From positions 1 to 10,237 of the forward strand of contig CAYWGS010000053.1 in assembly GCA_964457525.1 (NCBI GenBank): a stretch of DNA of 10,237 bases, written 5' to 3'. Made by a program: the position numbers and the translations under genes. Position 1 is the stretch's first letter. Each line of letters opens with the position of its first letter. This document shows, in pieces, positions 1-10,237 of the stretch. The notes beneath the pieces were generated by a model. It had not been told where the DNA came from. It made no database searches and saw only the letters and a program-made list of their open reading frames with translations. The stretch is from an uncultured Erysipelotrichaceae bacterium (GTDB taxonomy: Bacteria; Bacillota_I; Bacilli_A; Erysipelotrichales; Erysipelotrichaceae).

Positions 1-1158
1 TGCATCAACGGATGATTGTGATTTAAGAGAAATAATTTGAATTAATAAGCCAACAGTAATCGAAATAAGGGGGATAAATATAACAAAAGGTAATCCAAAC
101 TGTGTAATGATGATAGCGGCAAGGCTTGTACCAAGTGCTGAGGATAGTTGAATACTTGAATCGGTTAAACTAACAATGAAGTTCGCATCATGACTGGTTT
201 CTTGAATCATACCTAAGTTCATTTGTAGACCGGTTAACCAAGCACTCATGACCCATAGAATAGTAAGAATAATATTTAATATGAGAATGGATCGAGTTAC
301 TAACATGAACACTAAGAATAGTAATTGAAGAAGTGCCCCATAGAGGATGGATTTTTGATAACCAAAATGATCTGAGAAGAAACCACCAATCGCATTACCT
401 GTAAACGCTGCGATGCCAACTCCTATTAACAAGATACTCATAAAGGATTCGACGGATGGGTAAAGTTCAATGATATATGGGGTGATATAGGTATATAAAG
501 CAGAGTATCCAATAAACATACTGAGTGTAAATAGTAGGATAAAGTGTACTTTAGGATTCTTTAGATGAACTAACTCATGCTTAATATGAGAACTCTCTGA
601 TCTTTTCTTAGAAATAGGAAGATTAAATTGGAAGTAAAGGATAACACTTAGAATAAGAATATTAAGAATCCAGAAAATACTACGCCAATCAAGAACTGTA
701 TATAGAACACGCGTAAGTGGAATACCAATTACTAGCGCTAAAGCATTACCGGTTAATAGAAATGCAAGGGATCTTCCTTGTTTACCACTTTCTGACATGG
801 ATATAACCGTTGACATCGCCAATACACCATAACTATTAGCCACTACACCCATGAGAGTTCTAAAGACGAGAAGTATTGCGAAGTTAGGGGCATAGATGAG
901 TCCAATTGTACTGATAAAAGTTAAGGATAGAAGGGTGATGATTAAGTGTTTACGATTCGCATTAAAGAATACAATTAATACAATGGGAACACCGATGGCA
1001 GCCCCAAGTGCATACGCAGAGTTTAGAAGTCCTGTTAAAGCGACACTTACATTTAAATCAATCGCAACTTTATCCAATATCCCATTGAATAGAGATGCGG
1101 TCATTGTACTCACAAAGTTCATAAGAGTAAAAACATATAGCGTTAATTTATTTTTCAT
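1..1158 (-). CDS. MFS transporter, DHA1 / AraJ-YdhP-PbuE-like efflux permease (C-terminus cut by the window edge)
   Basis: Absent from the ORF track because it has no stop in the window. The reverse strand is open for 386 codons from ATG at 1158 to base 1, with GAGGT 5 nt upstream of the ATG. Translation: MKNKLTLYVFTLMNFVSTMTASLFNGILDKVAIDLNVSVALTGLLNSAYALGAAIGVPIV... It contains many hydrophobic helices. The loop SESGKQGRSLAFLLTGNALALVIGIPL is typical of this MFS subfamily. Confidence 0.85.
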   Translation of the reverse strand, partial: MKNKLTLYVFTLMNFVSTMTASLFNGILDKVAIDLNVSVALTGLLNSAYALGAAIGVPIVLIVFFNANRKHLIITLLSLTFISTIGLIYAPNFAILLVFRTLMGVVANSYGVLAMSTVISMSESGKQGRSLAFLLTGNALALVIGIPLTRVLYTVLDWRSIFWILNILILSVILYFQFNLPISKKRSESSHIKHELVHLKNPKVHFILLFTLSMFIGYSALYTYITPYIIELYPSVESFMSILLIGVGIAAFTGNAIGGFFSDHFGYQKSILYGALLQLLFLVFMLVTRSILILNIILTILWVMSAWLTGLQMNLGMIQETSHDANFIVSLTDSSIQLSSALGTSLAAIIITQFGLPFVIFIPLISITVGLLIQIISLKSQSSVDA

Positions 1159-1174
1159 TTGATACCTCGTTGAT

Positions 1175-1205
1175 ATTCTAATCTCTGGAGTTGACTCCAT
1201 GTCAA
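1175..1205 (-). promoter_or_regulatory. Promoter of the MFS gene with MerR-type architecture (19-bp spacer containing a dyad)
   Basis: On the minus strand: TTGACA (1205-1200), a 19-nt spacer, TAGAAT (1180-1175), then 16 nt to the ATG at 1158. The spacer holds the inverted repeat TGGAGT-nn-ACTCCA (1186-1199). Confidence 0.6.
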
Positions 1206-1222
1206 GAAATTACTTACAAATA

Positions 1223-1239
1223 AAAGGGCAGTGCCCTTT
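1223..1239 (-). terminator. Weak intrinsic terminator after the oxidoreductase gene
   Basis: 7-bp stem AAAGGGC/GCCCTTT with a 3-nt loop, overlapping the stop codon. On the minus strand it is followed by TATTTGT. The U-tract is poor, so read-through into the MFS gene is possible. Confidence 0.4.
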
Positions 1240-2176
1240 AGTTGATTTCATTCGATATCTGTATAACAATCTTTCCTTTCGCATGACCTTTAGAAAATTC
1301 TGTTAAGGCTTCAGCGGATTTATGGAAAGGATAGACTTTCTCGATAATTGGTTTTATGTCTTTCTTAGATACAAGTTCTAGGATCTCTTTTAAGTTATTC
1401 ATATTGGTTTTAGATGCGAGTAGTTTATACTTTTTATTACCCAGGGAATAAATAGGAAACATTAACATATTTATAACTAACTGTTTAATCGATCCACCAA
1501 TCATCACAAGAATACCATTCTCTTTAAGATGCTTGTTATAGAAGGAATGGGAGTAAGTTCCATTAACCGATAGAATACGATCATAACGAAGTTTTAATTG
1601 GTTGATATCATCGCGTTTATAGTTAATCACCACATCAGCACCTAAATCACGTGCTTGTTCGACATTGTTTGTACTAACGATCGCTGTCACATGTGTTTTA
1701 TAATACTTAGCTAATTGAATGAGGAAAGTCCCAACTCCACCACTTGCGCCAAGAATGAGTAGTTTCTCATCTTCTTTGATCGGTCTTATTAATCGCAAGG
1801 CATCGAGTGCAGTTGTGGACGCAACAGGACAAGCGGACGCATCTAATAGAGATACGTTAAGCGGTACTTGAATGCACAAAGATTCATCCACTGCGATATA
1901 TTCCACAAGTCCTCCAAATCCAACATCAGAAGTATCACATACAATACGATCTCCAACATGAAGTGTTTTAACATCAGTTCCGAATTCTTCCACAATACCT
2001 GCAATCGCATTGCCTAGAATACCAGATTTAGGGACAGAGTTGATTTGGATTAATCGATAGTCACCTGCGTTGAGTGAAGTACTCACAACTCGAATTAATA
2101 CTTGATTAGGTTTATAGTCTGGTTTAATTATTTCTTTGATTTCAAACTTCTTCTTTTGATAGATCAGTGCTTTCAT
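1238..2176 (-). CDS. NAD(P)H-dependent quinone oxidoreductase / zeta-crystallin-like MDR-family alcohol dehydrogenase
   Basis: 312-aa ORF. It has a GroES-like N-terminal region and the Rossmann motif LILGASGGVGTFLIQLAKYY. The C-terminal ...GHAKGKIVIQ is typical of Qor-type MDR proteins. GAGGA RBS lies inside the upstream gene, and only 1 nt separates the upstream stop from this ATG. Confidence 0.85.
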   Translation of the reverse strand: MKALIYQKKKFEIKEIIKPDYKPNQVLIRVVSTSLNAGDYRLIQINSVPKSGILGNAIAGIVEEFGTDVKTLHVGDRIVCDTSDVGFGGLVEYIAVDESLCIQVPLNVSLLDASACPVASTTALDALRLIRPIKEDEKLLILGASGGVGTFLIQLAKYYKTHVTAIVSTNNVEQARDLGADVVINYKRDDINQLKLRYDRILSVNGTYSHSFYNKHLKENGILVMIGGSIKQLVINMLMFPIYSLGNKKYKLLASKTNMNNLKEILELVSKKDIKPIIEKVYPFHKSAEALTEFSKGHAKGKIVIQISNEIN

Positions 2177-2177
2177 A

Positions 2178-2402
2178 TTAATCCTCTATTACTTCGTAAC
2201 TAAAAACTTTTGTGATGGGACAGTTAAACGCATCCGCAATTCGAAACGCAAGTTCGAGGGTTGGTGCATATTTACCTGCTTCAATGGCCATAATGGTTTG
2301 TCGAGATACCCCAGCTTTTTCCGCAAGCTCTTGTTGGGTCATCTCATTCTCAAAGAAGCGTAGGGTTCGAACTTGGTTGTTTACCTTAATTTTCTTAGCC
2401 AT
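2178..2402 (-). CDS. Small XRE/Cro-C1-type helix-turn-helix transcriptional regulator (74 aa)
   Basis: The motif QQELAEKAGVSRQTIMAIEAGKYAPTLELAFRIADAF is a canonical XRE HTH. The start overlaps the upstream membrane-protein stop by 8 nt (ATGGCTAA). Confidence 0.85.
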   Translation of the reverse strand: MAKKIKVNNQVRTLRFFENEMTQQELAEKAGVSRQTIMAIEAGKYAPTLELAFRIADAFNCPITKVFSYEVIED

Positions 2403-2877
2403 TACGTACTCCTTTTAGATTGAGATAGATGTTTGTGATACCTTCTGTAATTCCGCCCAATAATGAGGCTATAAATATAATATTGAGTGTTAGTACAATA
2501 GAATTACCTAAGGCAAGATAGATAAGCCCTGTCACAAATCCAATCCCTGTGAGGGAGTAGCCAACTTGTATGGATTTAAGATCAATGAGTTTCGTCATTT
2601 CATCTTCGACCATTTCGACATTAAGGGACTTCTCAATCGACTTACTGTCTTTGTTTCTTTCTTTGATTGCGATGGATACTGAGAGGAAGATATGGAAGGC
2701 TATGTGTAAAATAATCATCACCACAACACCGATTCCAATATACACTAACATGACAGTTGCCCAATATTTTGGTTCTGTTTGAACCCCAATTTGTGGTAGT
2801 ATTTGTGTGGTATATGAGAGGAATATTATTAGGCTAGTGATTAAACTTATGAGTGTTTTCTTAACCTGATATGGCAT
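2395..2877 (-). CDS. Small integral membrane protein (about 4 TM helices) of unknown function, paired with the XRE regulator
   Basis: The ORF track gives 2395..2940. The internal ATG at 2877 (MPYQVKKTLISL...) is preferred because AAGGAG sits 7 nt upstream. There are two N-terminal and two C-terminal hydrophobic helices separated by a charged linker (KERNKDSKSIEKSLNVEMVEDE). Confidence 0.7.
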   Translation of the reverse strand: MPYQVKKTLISLITSLIIFLSYTTQILPQIGVQTEPKYWATVMLVYIGIGVVVMIILHIAFHIFLSVSIAIKERNKDSKSIEKSLNVEMVEDEMTKLIDLKSIQVGYSLTGIGFVTGLIYLALGNSIVLTLNIIFIASLLGGITEGITNIYLNLKGVRNG

Positions 2878-2912
2878 AATTCTGCTCCTTTTTGTTAAAA
2901 TGACTATTAATC

Positions 2913-2948
2913 TATACACAATGTATAATAAACTTAACATAGTGTCAA
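2913..2948 (-). promoter_or_regulatory. Promoter of the membrane-XRE-oxidoreductase operon with an overlapping palindrome (candidate XRE operator)
   Basis: On the minus strand: TTGACA (2948-2943), 17 nt, TACATT (2925-2920). The inverted repeat TATACA-caa-TGTATA (2913-2927) overlaps the -10. Confidence 0.5.
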
Positions 2949-3062
2949 GTTATCTGTTTATAAATTAGTGTATTTTATCTCTTTTTGTCCTACTTAAATA
3001 AGCTGAAAACCATCTGAAAGCCCTTATAATTAACTGTTTTTAATGTGAAAAATAGGTGAAAT

Positions 3063-3092
3063 TTGCCAAGAATAATATTGTTATGCTAAAAT
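3063..3092 (+). promoter_or_regulatory. Sigma-A-type promoter of the lipoprotein gene
   Basis: TTGCCA (3063-3068), 18 nt, TAAAAT (3087-3092), with TG at 3084-3085 giving an extended -10. The AGGAG RBS follows, then the TTG start at 3124. Confidence 0.5.
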
Positions 3093-3123
3093 CACCAAGT
3101 CATCAGATAAAGGAGACAAACGA

Positions 3124-3966
3124 TTGATTAAAACAAAGAAAGTATGGTTTGCTGGGATAATCTTGTTTCTTGCGGCCTGTACACAAACAACGGAAAGCAC
3201 ACATATTGTTTTGCAAAGAGCTGATGAGAACACAATCTTAAGTGCTGCCATTGTTTCACCTTTTACGTTTGAAGAGAGCGTTGAGACGACTTATGATAAG
3301 ACAACCATTAAAACGGTCCTTAATCCAATGGATAACACAAGAACGGGTTATTCTTGGCTCATATCAAAAGTGAGTGAGGGTAGCGTAGGCTATACTGAAA
3401 CTCGATATCGTTCAACTTATGATAGTGAGGGGAATCTACTATCAAAAGAATATATTCCGGATTCAGAAGTTTATTATGATGGTAAGCCAACGATTTACCA
3501 ATATGGTGCAAAAGTTGAAAAAGGTGCTTACTTCAATGCACGTTCAATTACGAAGTATGGTTATGATTGTACTGGATGTTATATTGGTTTAGATGGAGCA
3601 GCAGGAACGTCTGCTGGGATTCGTCTAAATGGAACAAGCATTCGTCAATCCAATGGTACTTGGTTGGATGGCATTACCTATGATGGTTATTATGTTGTGG
3701 CGGCTGATAAAGCATTCCCAAATTGTACTATTTTAGAAATTTCAAATCATACCTTTAGTGGAATGGGATTATCCCCAGATGTTCCATTCAAGGCTTTAGT
3801 TGTGGATCGTGGAAGCGCGATTACGACAAACAAACTTGATCTATTTGTTGGTAGCGAAAAGAATATCAATGTGGTGACAAATAAGCGTACTGCAAATAGT
3901 AAGGTTACAGTGGTTGGGTTCCTTAAGTGGACAAAGAATGGATTAGGCGAACGTATTTGTAAATAA
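3124..3966 (+). CDS. Secreted lipoprotein with a G5-like region and a C-terminal 3D (RlpA/MltA-like double-psi barrel) domain; YabE-like cell-wall protein
   Basis: TTG start with an AGGAG RBS. Signal peptide plus lipobox: MIKTKKVWFAGIILFLAAC. The C-terminus (YGYDCTGC...GTSAGIRL...YYVVAADKAFPNCTILEI...ALVVDRGSAITTNKLDLFVGSE) carries the conserved Asp pattern of 3D domains. The position just upstream of rnmV-ksgA matches yabE in Bacillus. Confidence 0.75.
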   Translation: MIKTKKVWFAGIILFLAACTQTTESTHIVLQRADENTILSAAIVSPFTFEESVETTYDKTTIKTVLNPMDNTRTGYSWLISKVSEGSVGYTETRYRSTYDSEGNLLSKEYIPDSEVYYDGKPTIYQYGAKVEKGAYFNARSITKYGYDCTGCYIGLDGAAGTSAGIRLNGTSIRQSNGTWLDGITYDGYYVVAADKAFPNCTILEISNHTFSGMGLSPDVPFKALVVDRGSAITTNKLDLFVGSEKNINVVTNKRTANSKVTVVGFLKWTKNGLGERICK

Positions 3967-6691: not shown

Positions 6692-6928
6692 ATGAGCATG
6701 ATAACACTACGTGTCAGTGAAGAAGAGAAAAAAGTATTACAGAAGTACGCTGACTTTACAGGAGTTTCTTTAAGTGAGTTTATCAAATCGAGAGTTTTAG
6801 AGAGTATTGAGGATGAATATGATCTTAAGATGATTGAAGAATATGAGAAGAATAAAAAGAATCATACGACAGAATTCTATTCACTCGATGAAGTAAAGAA
6901 ATTACTGGGAATCGATGATGAACTATAG
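6692..6928 (+). CDS. Type II antitoxin, ribbon-helix-helix (RelB / DUF6290-like)
   Basis: 78 aa. The N-terminal ITLRVSEEEKKVLQKYADFTGVSLSEFIKSRVLE fits an RHH fold, followed by an acidic IEDEYDLK tail. AGGAGG RBS. Overlaps the toxin gene. Confidence 0.85.
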   Translation: MSMITLRVSEEEKKVLQKYADFTGVSLSEFIKSRVLESIEDEYDLKMIEEYEKNKKNHTTEFYSLDEVKKLLGIDDEL

Positions 6929-7190
6929 GGTTAAGTTTGAAAAGAATGCATTAAAGAGACTTACCAAGATTGATGTGAATCAAAGAATTATTCTTATGTC
7001 TTGGATACAAAAGAATTTAGATCAATGTGAGAATCCTAGAAGACATGGGAAGGCATTATCAGGGGGTTTAAATCAATATTGGTCTTATCGTGTTGGGGAT
7101 TATCGGATTGTGGTTGAGATATGTGACAATGAATTAATTGTGTTTGTAATTTCTTTAGGTCATCGTAGAGATATTTATAACAAAATATAA
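6915..7190 (+). CDS. Type II toxin, RelE/ParE superfamily mRNA interferase
   Basis: 91 aa. The sequence ...YWSYRVGDYRIVVEICDNELIVFVISLGHRRDIY is the canonical RelE/StbE C-terminal core. The start is ATG 6915 or 6918, overlapping the antitoxin by 14 or 11 nt. Confidence 0.9.
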   Translation: MMNYRVKFEKNALKRLTKIDVNQRIILMSWIQKNLDQCENPRRHGKALSGGLNQYWSYRVGDYRIVVEICDNELIVFVISLGHRRDIYNKI

Positions 7191-9602: not shown

Positions 9603-9617
9603 TAGTTAATGAAAATG

Positions 9618-9650
9618 AGATATATGTGTCTATAAACATATATCTTTTTT
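9618..9650 (+). terminator. Intrinsic terminator after prs
   Basis: 10-bp stem AGATATATGT/ACATATATCT with an 8-nt loop, followed by TTTTT. Confidence 0.85.
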
Positions 9651-9852
9651 GTATACAATATTATATAAATAAATCCGAATGATACACTAGATGCGGAAGT
9701 ATTTTATAGATAATTTAAAGCGTACATAAAAGATCCTAAAAAATATTCCTAGACTTATGGATTATACTTAGGGACTTCGTTTAGAATATAAAGTACGGCG
9801 AATGTTAGGGATATGGTTATAGAAATTCTGAGCTTAGATGGTATAATCTAGA

Positions 9853-10053
9853 GGTAAAGGCTGAAATATACCGCGAGGCTTGACTCGTAAATAACTTGGA
9901 ATTCGTGTAGAACGTATGGGTCTACAAGTCGGTTGGCGACGAAAAACCAAAAATTCGTTTGAAATGTATAGGTTCAAATGTTGACAAGCAACGAAACAAT
10001 CAAGCGTTAAAGAGATGTATGAAAACTTTGGAGACCTTACATCTCTTTTCATT
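9853..10053 (+). ncRNA. Candidate ~200-nt structured non-coding RNA of unrecognised class (independent sRNA or orphan leader)
   Basis: Perfect extended -10 TGgTATAAT at 9839-9847. No ORF with an RBS. Serial hairpins at 9873-9888, 9906-9926, 9931-9948 and 9956-9980. An 11-bp terminal hairpin AAAGAGATGTA/TACATCTCTTT (10009-10048) is followed by TCATT. Visibly less AT-rich than the flanking spacers. Confidence 0.35.
9898..10001 (+). repeat. Diverged tandem duplication (2 x 52 nt), each unit carrying a 6-bp hairpin with a 9-nt loop
   Basis: Units 9898-9949 and 9950-10001 are identical at 31 of 52 ungapped positions by hand count. Unit A core: AATTCG-TGTAGA-ACGTATGGG-TCTACA. Unit B core: AATTCG-TTTGAA-ATGTATAGG-TTCAAA. 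A third ATGTAT lies at 10015, one further period downstream. Confidence 0.6.
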
Positions 10054-10237
10054 AGTAGAATAATTATATTAAATATTGTCTTATTTTATGTAACATCAAA
10101 TTAAATGTTATTATTTAATCAATTTAGTTTGAATAGCTAGTTTCAATTCAATTTTAAACTTTCAAATATAGATTTTTTAACTCGGGAGTTTGACACTTCA
10201 AAGAATCATTAAATAACACAAGTCCTTGTAAATAAAG

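Follow-up and report, generated by a model that had tools for sequence, protein, structure and literature searches.

A pseudoknotted small RNA from an uncultured Erysipelotrichaceae bacterium, a member of an apparently undescribed family that precedes PBECR4 genes in a probable type III-like toxin-antitoxin module

The stretch analysed here (the window) comprises the 10,237 nucleotides (nt) of contig CAYWGS010000053.1 from an uncultured Erysipelotrichaceae bacterium. Its plus strand carries rnmV, ksgA, ispE, a RelB/ParE-type pair, glmU and prs, and after the prs terminator lies the promoter of the element under study, a predicted small-RNA gene of about 190-200 nt on the same strand, with its own promoter and intrinsic terminator. 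Two tandem 52-nt hairpin units, which had drawn attention in a reading of the sequence alone, form the middle of this putative gene. The features of the region are as follows.

9820-9847, plus strand: predicted promoter, with -35 box TAGAAA, 16-nt spacer and extended -10 box TGgTATAAT
9868-10012, plus strand: structured RNA core, defined by a full-length covariance-model match
9874-9887, plus strand: P1 hairpin, stem CGAG/CTCG, loop L1 GCTTGA at 9878-9883
9895-9898, plus strand: strand a, CTTG; its partner is a' CAAG (9985-9988), which lies in the P2b loop
9906-9926, plus strand: H1 (hairpin A), TGTAGA-ACGTATGGG-TCTACA, stem arms 9906-9911 and 9921-9926 (6 bp), 9-nt loop
9928-9950, plus strand: P2a and b', GTCG-GTTGG-CGAC followed by an A-tract and b' CCAA (9947-9950), which pairs with loop strand b TTGG (9933-9936) in an H-type pseudoknot
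9958-9978, plus strand: H2 (hairpin B), TTTGAA-ATGTATAGG-TTCAAA, stem arms 9958-9963 and 9973-9978 (6 bp), 9-nt loop
9980-9992, plus strand: P2b hairpin, GTTG-ACAAG-CAAC, with a' in the loop
10000-10005, plus strand: L1' TCAAGC, pairing with the P1 loop at 9878-9883
10009-10052, plus strand: intrinsic terminator, 11-bp stem AAAGAGATGTA/TACATCTCTTT with an 18-nt loop, then TTTTCATT (U-tract)
10053-10071, plus strand: degraded remnant of a toxin ribosome-binding region, where homology to toxin-bearing loci ends
10183-10237, no strand: breakpoint; these last 55 nt are unlike all 16 strain-level contigs, which run on to a convergent Abi_2 gene

The sequence-only reading had described tandem 52-nt units whose stems differ at pairs 2, 4 and 5 with pairing preserved, whose loops match at seven of nine positions and whose 3' parts align, and each of these statements was borne out by the window sequence. 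The two AATTCG copies (9900-9905 and 9952-9957) are spaced by 52 nt, the loops ACGTATGGG and ATGTATAGG are equal at 7/9 positions, the H1 and H2 stems differ on both arms at the three pairs named with pairing intact, and the 3' parts GCGACGAAAAAC and GCAACGAAACAA can be aligned. Overall, units A and B are identical at 33/52 positions, which is too low for Tandem Repeats Finder, and this program did not report the units. No matched hairpin pair arose when the intergenic region (9603-10237) was shuffled 5000 times with dinucleotides preserved, and the top identity at an offset of 52 in 2000 shuffles of the same region was 29, compared with 33 in the real sequence. These results confirmed that the two-hairpin observation is real and far beyond chance. 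A third ATGTAT, noted one period further on at 10015, is indeed present, where it forms part of the 5' arm of the terminator stem, but it is no conserved motif, since the nearest relatives that are linked to a toxin gene (L064, L065, L060 and the Erysipelothrix phage phi1605) have ATGTTT there. Conservation of the hairpin loops themselves is limited to within subfamilies.

The promoter at 9820-9847 matched the consensus at 10 of 12 positions with the TG extension in addition, and it aligns with TTGACA...TATACT ahead of the phi1605 homologue. The terminator stem coincides with an inverted repeat (I15) of 100% complementarity; a terminator stands at the equivalent place in all homologues, and its stem covaries. 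A simple terminator scan did not report the one at 10009-10052 because its loop exceeds 8 nt. Similarly, folding of the single sequence was uninformative (z = -0.3 on the plus strand and -1.9 on the minus strand) because the real fold is pseudoknotted. Searches of Rfam 15 gave no relevant match in the window or in the strain-level contig L001, either at the gathering threshold or at E <= 10, and in 20 toxin-bearing loci the upstream RNA was likewise unmatched, tRNAs being the only matches. Just 5' of the -35 box we also noticed direct repeats 37 nt apart, TTAGGGACTTCGTT (9768-9781) and TTAGGGATATGGTT (9805-9818); the upstream region of phi1605 cannot be aligned there, and the repeats may be due to chance or may be an operator.

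In order to place the element in a family, we used a covariance model (R1) built from 30 toxin-linked RNAs of Clostridia and Synergistales, from which the window and its five closest relatives were excluded. R1 matched the window once, at 9868-10012 and on the plus strand only, with 82.6 bits (E = 5.1e-20) and over the full model (1-145/145). Every helix (P1, L1/L1', a/a', H1, P2a, b/b', H2 and P2b) can be formed in the window with standard pairs only. By blastn, window positions 9874-10071 were 82% identical to phage phi1605, and for RNA and toxin alike the closest relatives come from Erysipelothrix rhusiopathiae. The element found no match in a blastn search against plasmids, and the exact pattern AATTCG-N6-AYGTATRGG...AATTCG occurred in viral contigs only as a single chance match in coding sequence, without the hairpin. 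The RNA belongs to a large and apparently undescribed family of pseudoknotted RNAs, with over 40 further loci in bacteria and phages.

Covariation was analysed in a plain MAFFT alignment of 36 RNAs, unfitted to any model, which served as input to RNAalifold, and in a model-fitted alignment of 42 distinct rows, in which P1, P2a, P2b and H2 were absent from the model structure. RNAalifold recovered H1, H2 and the terminator together with three unprompted long-range helices, with compensatory changes in 33 of the 34 pairs. In the unfitted alignment 87.2% of the cells were paired, against 70.2% in shuffled alignments (0/500), and cells with double changes numbered 360 versus 120; slid controls gave 29-44% paired. 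The corresponding values of the model-fitted alignment were 90.6% against 73.6% (0/500) and 295 against 82, and P1, P2a, P2b and H2 held up there, even though they lie outside the model structure. The 16 strain-level contigs mentioned above gave no covariation information because their RNA copies are identical.

All pairs of a/a', b/b', L1/L1' and P1 covaried in the 42 model-fitted rows. The P1 stem was 94.6% paired (4/4 pairs covarying) and L1/L1' 93.7%, with double changes in 6/6 pairs and variants such as TGACTGG/CCAGTCA, TGCTAA/TTAGCA and GTGCGA/TCGCAC; this last helix was also predicted independently by RNAalifold. Strands a and a' were 100% paired (4/4 covarying; UCCG/CGGA, CCCG/CGGG and CUUG/CAAG), P2a was 91.9% paired and b/b' 99.4% (4/4 covarying, one pair being GC in 18, AU in 12 and UA in 9 sequences), and P2b was 98.2% paired, with the stems GTTG/CAAC, GTCG/CGAC, GCTG/CAGC and GATG/CATC. 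As proposed from the two copies of the window, the stems of the H hairpins are under selection to pair: the inner pairs of H1 and H2 occur as CG, AU, UA and GC across 36-46 homologues. The inner four pairs of H1 covary strongly (columns 53/70 are CG in 18, AU in 12, UA in 4 and GC in 2), its outer two pairs being confined to the subfamily of the window, and the inner pairs of H2 covary in the model-fitted alignment. The closest toxin-linked relatives have the H2 stem TGTGAA/TTCACA, so that T-A at pair 2 in the window is a compensated change.

From 5' to 3' the order of the elements is P1 (with L1), an A-tract, a, H1, P2a (with b), an A-tract, b', H2, P2b (with a'), an A-tract, L1' and the terminator. 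P1, P2a and P2b are hairpins of 4 bp, of which P2a and P2b make up the 3' parts of the two units. Whereas P2a pairs with the adjacent downstream strand, P1 and P2b swap their downstream partners and thereby close the molecule. The number of H modules varies, with one in L051 and three in L034, and in the one-module RNA both remaining hairpins still swap strands. The alignments thus show a closed, interlocked pseudoknot scaffold, as predicted from covariation, bearing one, two or three H modules. The short tandem repeat array of the sequence-only reading did not stand in this light, because the RNA is an interlocked fold and not a row of independent repeats, but the notion of a promoter-RNA-terminator unit of a type III-like module did.

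That notion rests on what follows the RNA elsewhere. A scan of one genome per species yielded 33 loci, 31 of them with upstream sequence, in Oscillospiraceae, Lachnospiraceae, Filifactor, Epulonipiscium, other Clostridia and Synergistales. In 31/31 of these genome loci the RNA, flanked by a promoter and a terminator, immediately precedes a PBECR4 gene on the same strand. The same order of RNA and PBECR4 gene was found in three viral contigs, in four metagenome loci closer to the window and in both copies of phi1605, and L060-L065 likewise carry the RNA 5' of a PBECR4 gene. No protein antitoxin gene stands beside the PBECR4 gene in the homologous loci. The order structured RNA, terminator and toxin gene without protein antitoxin, which is found in the homologous loci and not in the window, is that of type III toxin-antitoxin systems, as judged from gene order. 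A ToxN-, AbiQ-, CptN- or TenpN-like ORF had been named as the one to look for downstream; the homologous loci carry PBECR4 genes, which probably differ from TenpN as well, going by its published description.

The phi1605 record (MF172979.1) holds twice an island with a helicase, a type III restriction-modification system, the RNA with its PBECR4 gene, and serine recombinases. In it the promoter, RNA and terminator are followed by a ribosome-binding site and an open reading frame (ORF). The two toxin ORFs (L022 12809-13435 and L023 39513-40346) are annotated as hypothetical proteins from internal start codons; copy 1 has TAA at codon 140 and so encodes 139 amino acids (aa), whereas copy 2 has GAA there and is intact, with 208 aa. 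The surroundings are those of mobile elements: in phi1605 and Faecousia the module immediately precedes large serine recombinases, and methylases or restriction systems are close by. Gene callers often run PBECR4 ORFs about 50 codons upstream through terminator and RNA, which creates false N-termini (...GGQQKNQS..., ...QATKKSS...), the sequence QATKKSS being translated CAAGCAACGAAAAAATCAAGC; such extended calls include P0015, P0018, P0019, P0021, P0032 and P0052 as well as many representatives of the hidden Markov model (HMM) search described below.

The protein of phi1605 copy 2 matched Pfam PF18813 (PBECR4, E = 1.3e-22) as its sole Pfam match, and the PBECR4 proteins of the homologous loci are about 205-220 aa long. 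A protein search returned 48 stand-alone PBECR4 homologues. The full HMM search gave 570 representative clusters (50% identity) with E <= 1e-30, a number that rises to 1172 when E <= 1e-10 is allowed, and most of these proteins have 200-220 aa. The sections of the domain description at hand (PMC5512222) present PBECR domains as predicted metal-independent endoRNases of the Barnase-EndoU-ColicinE5/D-RelE (BECR) fold, whose predicted active site is made up of a His and a C-terminal Thr/Ser. In our family alignment H50 is invariant and T148 near-invariant, and further invariant residues include E40, F43, G53, K94 and K125; H50 and T148 would fit the predicted His plus Thr/Ser active site. A confident AlphaFold model of the toxin (predicted local distance difference test, pLDDT, 85.6; predicted template modelling score, pTM, 0.84) gave no Foldseek match in the PDB at E <= 0.001, the best being the CdiA-CT EC3006 tRNase (E = 0.39), and ToxN, AbiQ and CptN entries were absent from the best 50 PDB matches listed. 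Sequence searches of the PDB, including a profile search at E <= 10, left the toxin unmatched, as did NCBIfam, and PADLOC gave no match for phi1605, where the truncated 139-aa copy 1 was scanned. PHROGs returned a single weak, unnamed match to the Filifactor toxin and BFVD two unnamed phage proteins of the same fold; RefSeq names these proteins 'PBECR4 domain-containing protein'. In the full texts searched, whose coverage is incomplete so that an earlier description is possible, no paper connected PBECR4 either with an RNA or with type III systems.

In the window the toxin gene is missing, as the sequence-only reading had rightly remarked: no ORF follows the element, and beyond about 10071 the homology to toxin-bearing loci is lost. 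The phi1605 alignment extends from the -35 box to AGAGAGGATAACTAATTA in the phage and AGT-AGAATAATTATATTA in the window and then ends, 19 nt past the terminator; the ribosome-binding site reads AGAGAGGA in phi1605 and AGTAGAAT in the window, and comparison with phi1605 revealed no trace of the 627-nt toxin ORF. The ORF is likewise gone in the 16 strain-level metagenome contigs, which have an identical Prs protein, share the sequence of the window up to 10182 with an identical RNA, and differ by single-nucleotide polymorphisms only at 10022 and 10106. With no trace of a PBECR4 ORF after it, the window RNA is an orphan by this comparison; it has kept all its helices, and the toxin ORF has been deleted in this lineage. 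That accounts for the absence of a toxin gene, since a toxin candidate always comes after the homologous RNAs in the loci scanned and has been lost here. As for the 55 nt beyond the breakpoint, they matched none of the loci fetched and may represent an insertion, a rearrangement or an assembly join.

Orphans and decayed copies also occur elsewhere. In Filifactor villosus another orphan RNA (L041 930-1071) lies within a region (581-3142) that begins with a ParE-type toxin gene and continues, after the orphan, with two complete tandem modules of RNA and PBECR4 gene (1297-1439 with 1502-2143, and 2290-2434 with 2501-3142). In L032 a second RNA precedes a decayed toxin paralogue. In L008, where an Abi_2 gene 90% identical to that near the window is present, the RNA has decayed and is interrupted by an IS21-family element (L008 5310-7800; transposase and IstB helper, with multiple terminal GGCAC...CGCC repeats) inserted in its 5' half.

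Taken together, we consider it probable that the RNA and PBECR4 form an RNA-antitoxin/protein-toxin module with type III layout, the antitoxin function being suggested by sequence comparison. In type III systems the terminator between RNA and toxin gene provides an excess of RNA, which holds the RNase inactive until it is depleted. By analogy, the terminator here would keep the RNA in excess over the toxin; the RNA would bind and neutralise the PBECR4 RNase, probably with one toxin per module of H hairpin and pseudoknot; and loss or turnover of the RNA would free the toxin, leading to addiction or abortive infection that serves the carrier mobile elements. The invariant A-tracts that follow P1, P2a and P2b could be sites of contact or cleavage. 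In ToxIN and CptIN processed repeats assemble into a ring, a role that a single closed chain may take over here. Signs typical of toxin-antitoxin systems are the one to three units, the inactivated or decayed toxins (phi1605 copy 1, L032), the other orphan RNAs and the setting in mobile elements. Several points weigh against this interpretation. The fold is integrated from end to end, unlike the separable, near-identical repeats of ToxI and CptI, so that the classical mechanism of processing and assembly may not apply. The nuclease activity of PBECR4 is only a prediction at family level, with no significant Foldseek match in the PDB. Furthermore, the window copy differs from the other RNAs at near-invariant positions, namely in the H2 loop, in the second A-tract (A to C at 9996) and in the terminator, where the tetraloop C(UGCG)G is lost, and its -35 box is weakened. 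These substitutions, together with the decay and IS21 truncation of the RNA in the sister locus L008, suggest that orphan copies are not maintained for long.

The integrated multi-pseudoknot fold, the invariant A-tracts and the conserved loops directly ahead of a terminator and gene would also suit a cis-acting leader, that is, a riboswitch or an attenuator sensing a protein or ligand, which controls read-through into PBECR4 without binding the toxin and of which the window copy would be a useless relic; the noncoding RNA RCd22 of AbiF was likewise first discussed as 'riboswitch-like' (PMC12373285). We regard this explanation as unlikely, however, since L1' ends 3-6 nt 5' of the terminator stem and no antiterminator pairing that overlaps the terminator was found in the homologue alignment, since orphans with their own promoter and terminator have no downstream gene (the window; L041 930-1071), since the number of modules varies from one to three as in antitoxin arrays, and since the gene downstream is predicted to encode a toxin and lies on mobile elements, without a protein antitoxin gene beside it. 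There is practically no likelihood that the region codes for a protein, either as the 72-aa ORF of the minus strand (9834-10052), which is present and which gene calling reported in one contig, or as decaying duplicated coding sequence with a protein repeat: the ORF had no match in Pfam, NCBIfam or PADLOC, the period of 52 nt is not divisible by three, R1 matches the plus strand only, and homologue substitutions are pairwise compensatory in RNA helices, which also counters the duplication scenario that had been named as one way in which the hairpins might be explained away. A 22-codon plus-strand ORF from 9915 found no support. A different matter, compatible with the family-level explanation and concerning the window copy only, is whether this copy does nothing now and is a recently stranded, decaying antitoxin pseudogene, to which we give slightly less than an even chance. 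The loss of the toxin ORF and the degraded ribosome-binding site point in that direction, as do the changes at otherwise conserved positions, the fate of the homologue in L008, and the score of 82.6 bits, the lowest of the full-length two-unit members (others 84-146). On the other hand, all nine helices are intact, including the compensated change in H2, both the terminator and the extended -10 box survive, and the 16 independent metagenome contigs are identical, although this may reflect recent common ancestry. Because of the changes at conserved positions, the lowest score and the orphan or decayed relatives, the window RNA is as likely to be a recent relic, stranded without its toxin, as a functional stand-alone antidote that acts in trans on related toxins.

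The remaining candidate for a partner is the Abi_2 gene located on the minus strand about 300 nt downstream, just past the window, in all strain-level contigs (Pfam E = 6.5e-36; AbiD in PADLOC). For AbiF toxins, neutralisation by an RNA carrying two abiF motifs is described (PMC12373285), and an RNA acting as antitoxin of this convergent gene of the AbiD-AbiF type, in the manner of RCd22, might be imagined, all the more so as the gene adjoins the element in every strain-level contig and the Abi_2 gene of L008 is also flanked by remnants of the RNA. This possibility was followed through the homologues P0002, P0003 and P0005 and rejected, the gene being convergent instead of lying downstream of the RNA on the same strand, and homologues with 73% (L009) and 62% (L010) identity lacking the RNA. 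Moreover, the RNA is tied to PBECR4 in every other locus examined, the abiF motif RF03085 was unmatched even at E <= 10, and the Abi_2 clade has a conserved promoter-hairpin-terminator element of its own right after the stop codon (4/4 genes examined), all of which makes an Abi_2 partner highly improbable.

This last element was observed 3' of Abi_2 genes, on the strand of the gene itself, at 11615-11740 of L001 (minus strand; shortly past the end of the window), 4976-5100 of L008, 4976-5092 of L009 and 4979-5100 of L010, in a clade with 62-100% aa identity. It consists of -35/-10-like boxes with a variable spacer, a near-invariant hairpin, GAGAUAUCCAGUGAACGCUGGAUG, and a strong terminator in which three pairs are compensatory. 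We consider it a candidate small RNA partner of about 55 nt for Abi_2 proteins; it had no match in Rfam, the abiF motif included. Within the window itself, the pair at 6692-7190, a RelB/DUF6290-type antitoxin with a ParE/RelE-type toxin, sits between ispE and glmU in an otherwise housekeeping row of genes.

To our knowledge, the known families of RNA antitoxins with protein toxins are a handful, namely ToxIN, CptIN, TenpIN and, recently, AbiF, and the BECR toxin fold has so far been known only with protein immunity or antitoxin partners. The known families have been informative for phage defence and for RNA-protein recognition, and AbiF also for the origin of Cas13. The present analysis pairs an RNA family backed by covariation (more than 40 loci) with a toxin family of at least 570 clusters at 50% identity. 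Whether PBECR4 and this RNA together constitute a new, widespread type III-like family of toxin-antitoxin or abortive-infection systems on mobile elements of Bacillota and Synergistota, in which a self-closing, single-chain RNA of several pseudoknots, and not a set of processed repeat monomers, restrains a BECR-fold RNase with one toxin-binding module per H hairpin, and with orphans acting as stand-alone antidotes against incoming toxin-bearing elements, is a broader proposal that we see as evenly poised. If true, it would assign a function to the hypothetical proteins called 'PBECR4 domain-containing' and correct their RNA-derived false N-termini, it would offer the RNA as a compact swapped-pseudoknot scaffold for structural study, and it would explain the odd intergenic element of the window genome as an orphan antitoxin in a defence island.

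Like the type III systems ToxIN, CptIN and TenpIN, the modules have a promoter and a short, repeated structured RNA ahead of an intrinsic terminator; the gene that comes next codes for a small predicted endoRNase, and there is no protein antitoxin gene. They also share with these systems pseudoknotted units with conserved A-tracts, a variable repeat number (here 1-3) and a location in phages, prophages or islands (PMC4627078, PMC12283969), and like tenpI they have imperfect repeats that are missed by Tandem Repeats Finder (PMC12283969). Unlike these systems, the RNA forms one interlocked fold, with loop pairing across units and from the 5' hairpin loop to the 3' end, in place of self-contained repeats. 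The predicted toxin, a PBECR4 protein of about 208 aa with BECR fold, differs from ToxN, AbiQ and CptN in lacking sequence similarity and, among the best 50 matches listed, Foldseek similarity to them; ToxN (Pfam ToxN_toxin) has a Kid/MazF-like fold with a kinked helix. From TenpN, whose published signature includes D28, R36, Y38, P53, R55, H60, G75, D77 and K80 and whose predicted fold is ToxN-like (PMC12283969), it seems to differ, to judge by conserved residues unlike those of the signature and by the lack of a ToxN-like Foldseek match.

The protein itself agrees with the PBECR phage polyvalent proteins (Iyer et al. 2017; PMC5512222) in being a Pfam PBECR4 protein with the His plus Thr/Ser pattern described in the available sections of that work. 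These sections treat PBECR domains as injected phage effectors or solo phage proteins and make no mention of an upstream structured RNA or a toxin-antitoxin role; a 2026 preprint on BECR classification likewise does not mention an upstream RNA or a toxin-antitoxin arrangement. AbiF with RCd22 offers a parallel in layout: ahead of a toxic RNase-like Abi protein lies a small RNA that has its own promoter and terminator and contains two related hairpin motifs, and for which a role as type III-like antitoxin has been proposed or shown (PMC12373285). The RNA (no RF03085 match) and the toxin family (PBECR4, not Abi_2) are different. With CptI of Eubacterium rectale (PDB 4RMO), also from gut Firmicutes, the window element has in common two repeats of about 45-52 nt, an H-type pseudoknot and an A-rich strand after a short stem (PMC4627078), although the CptI repeat is unrelated by eye to the RNA described here. 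The CptI complex is a ring of two RNAs and two toxins (PMC4627078); in the RNA of the PBECR4 modules, closure would instead be achieved within a single chain by swapped pairs of loop and strand, and each unit bears an extra variable hairpin (H1, H2).

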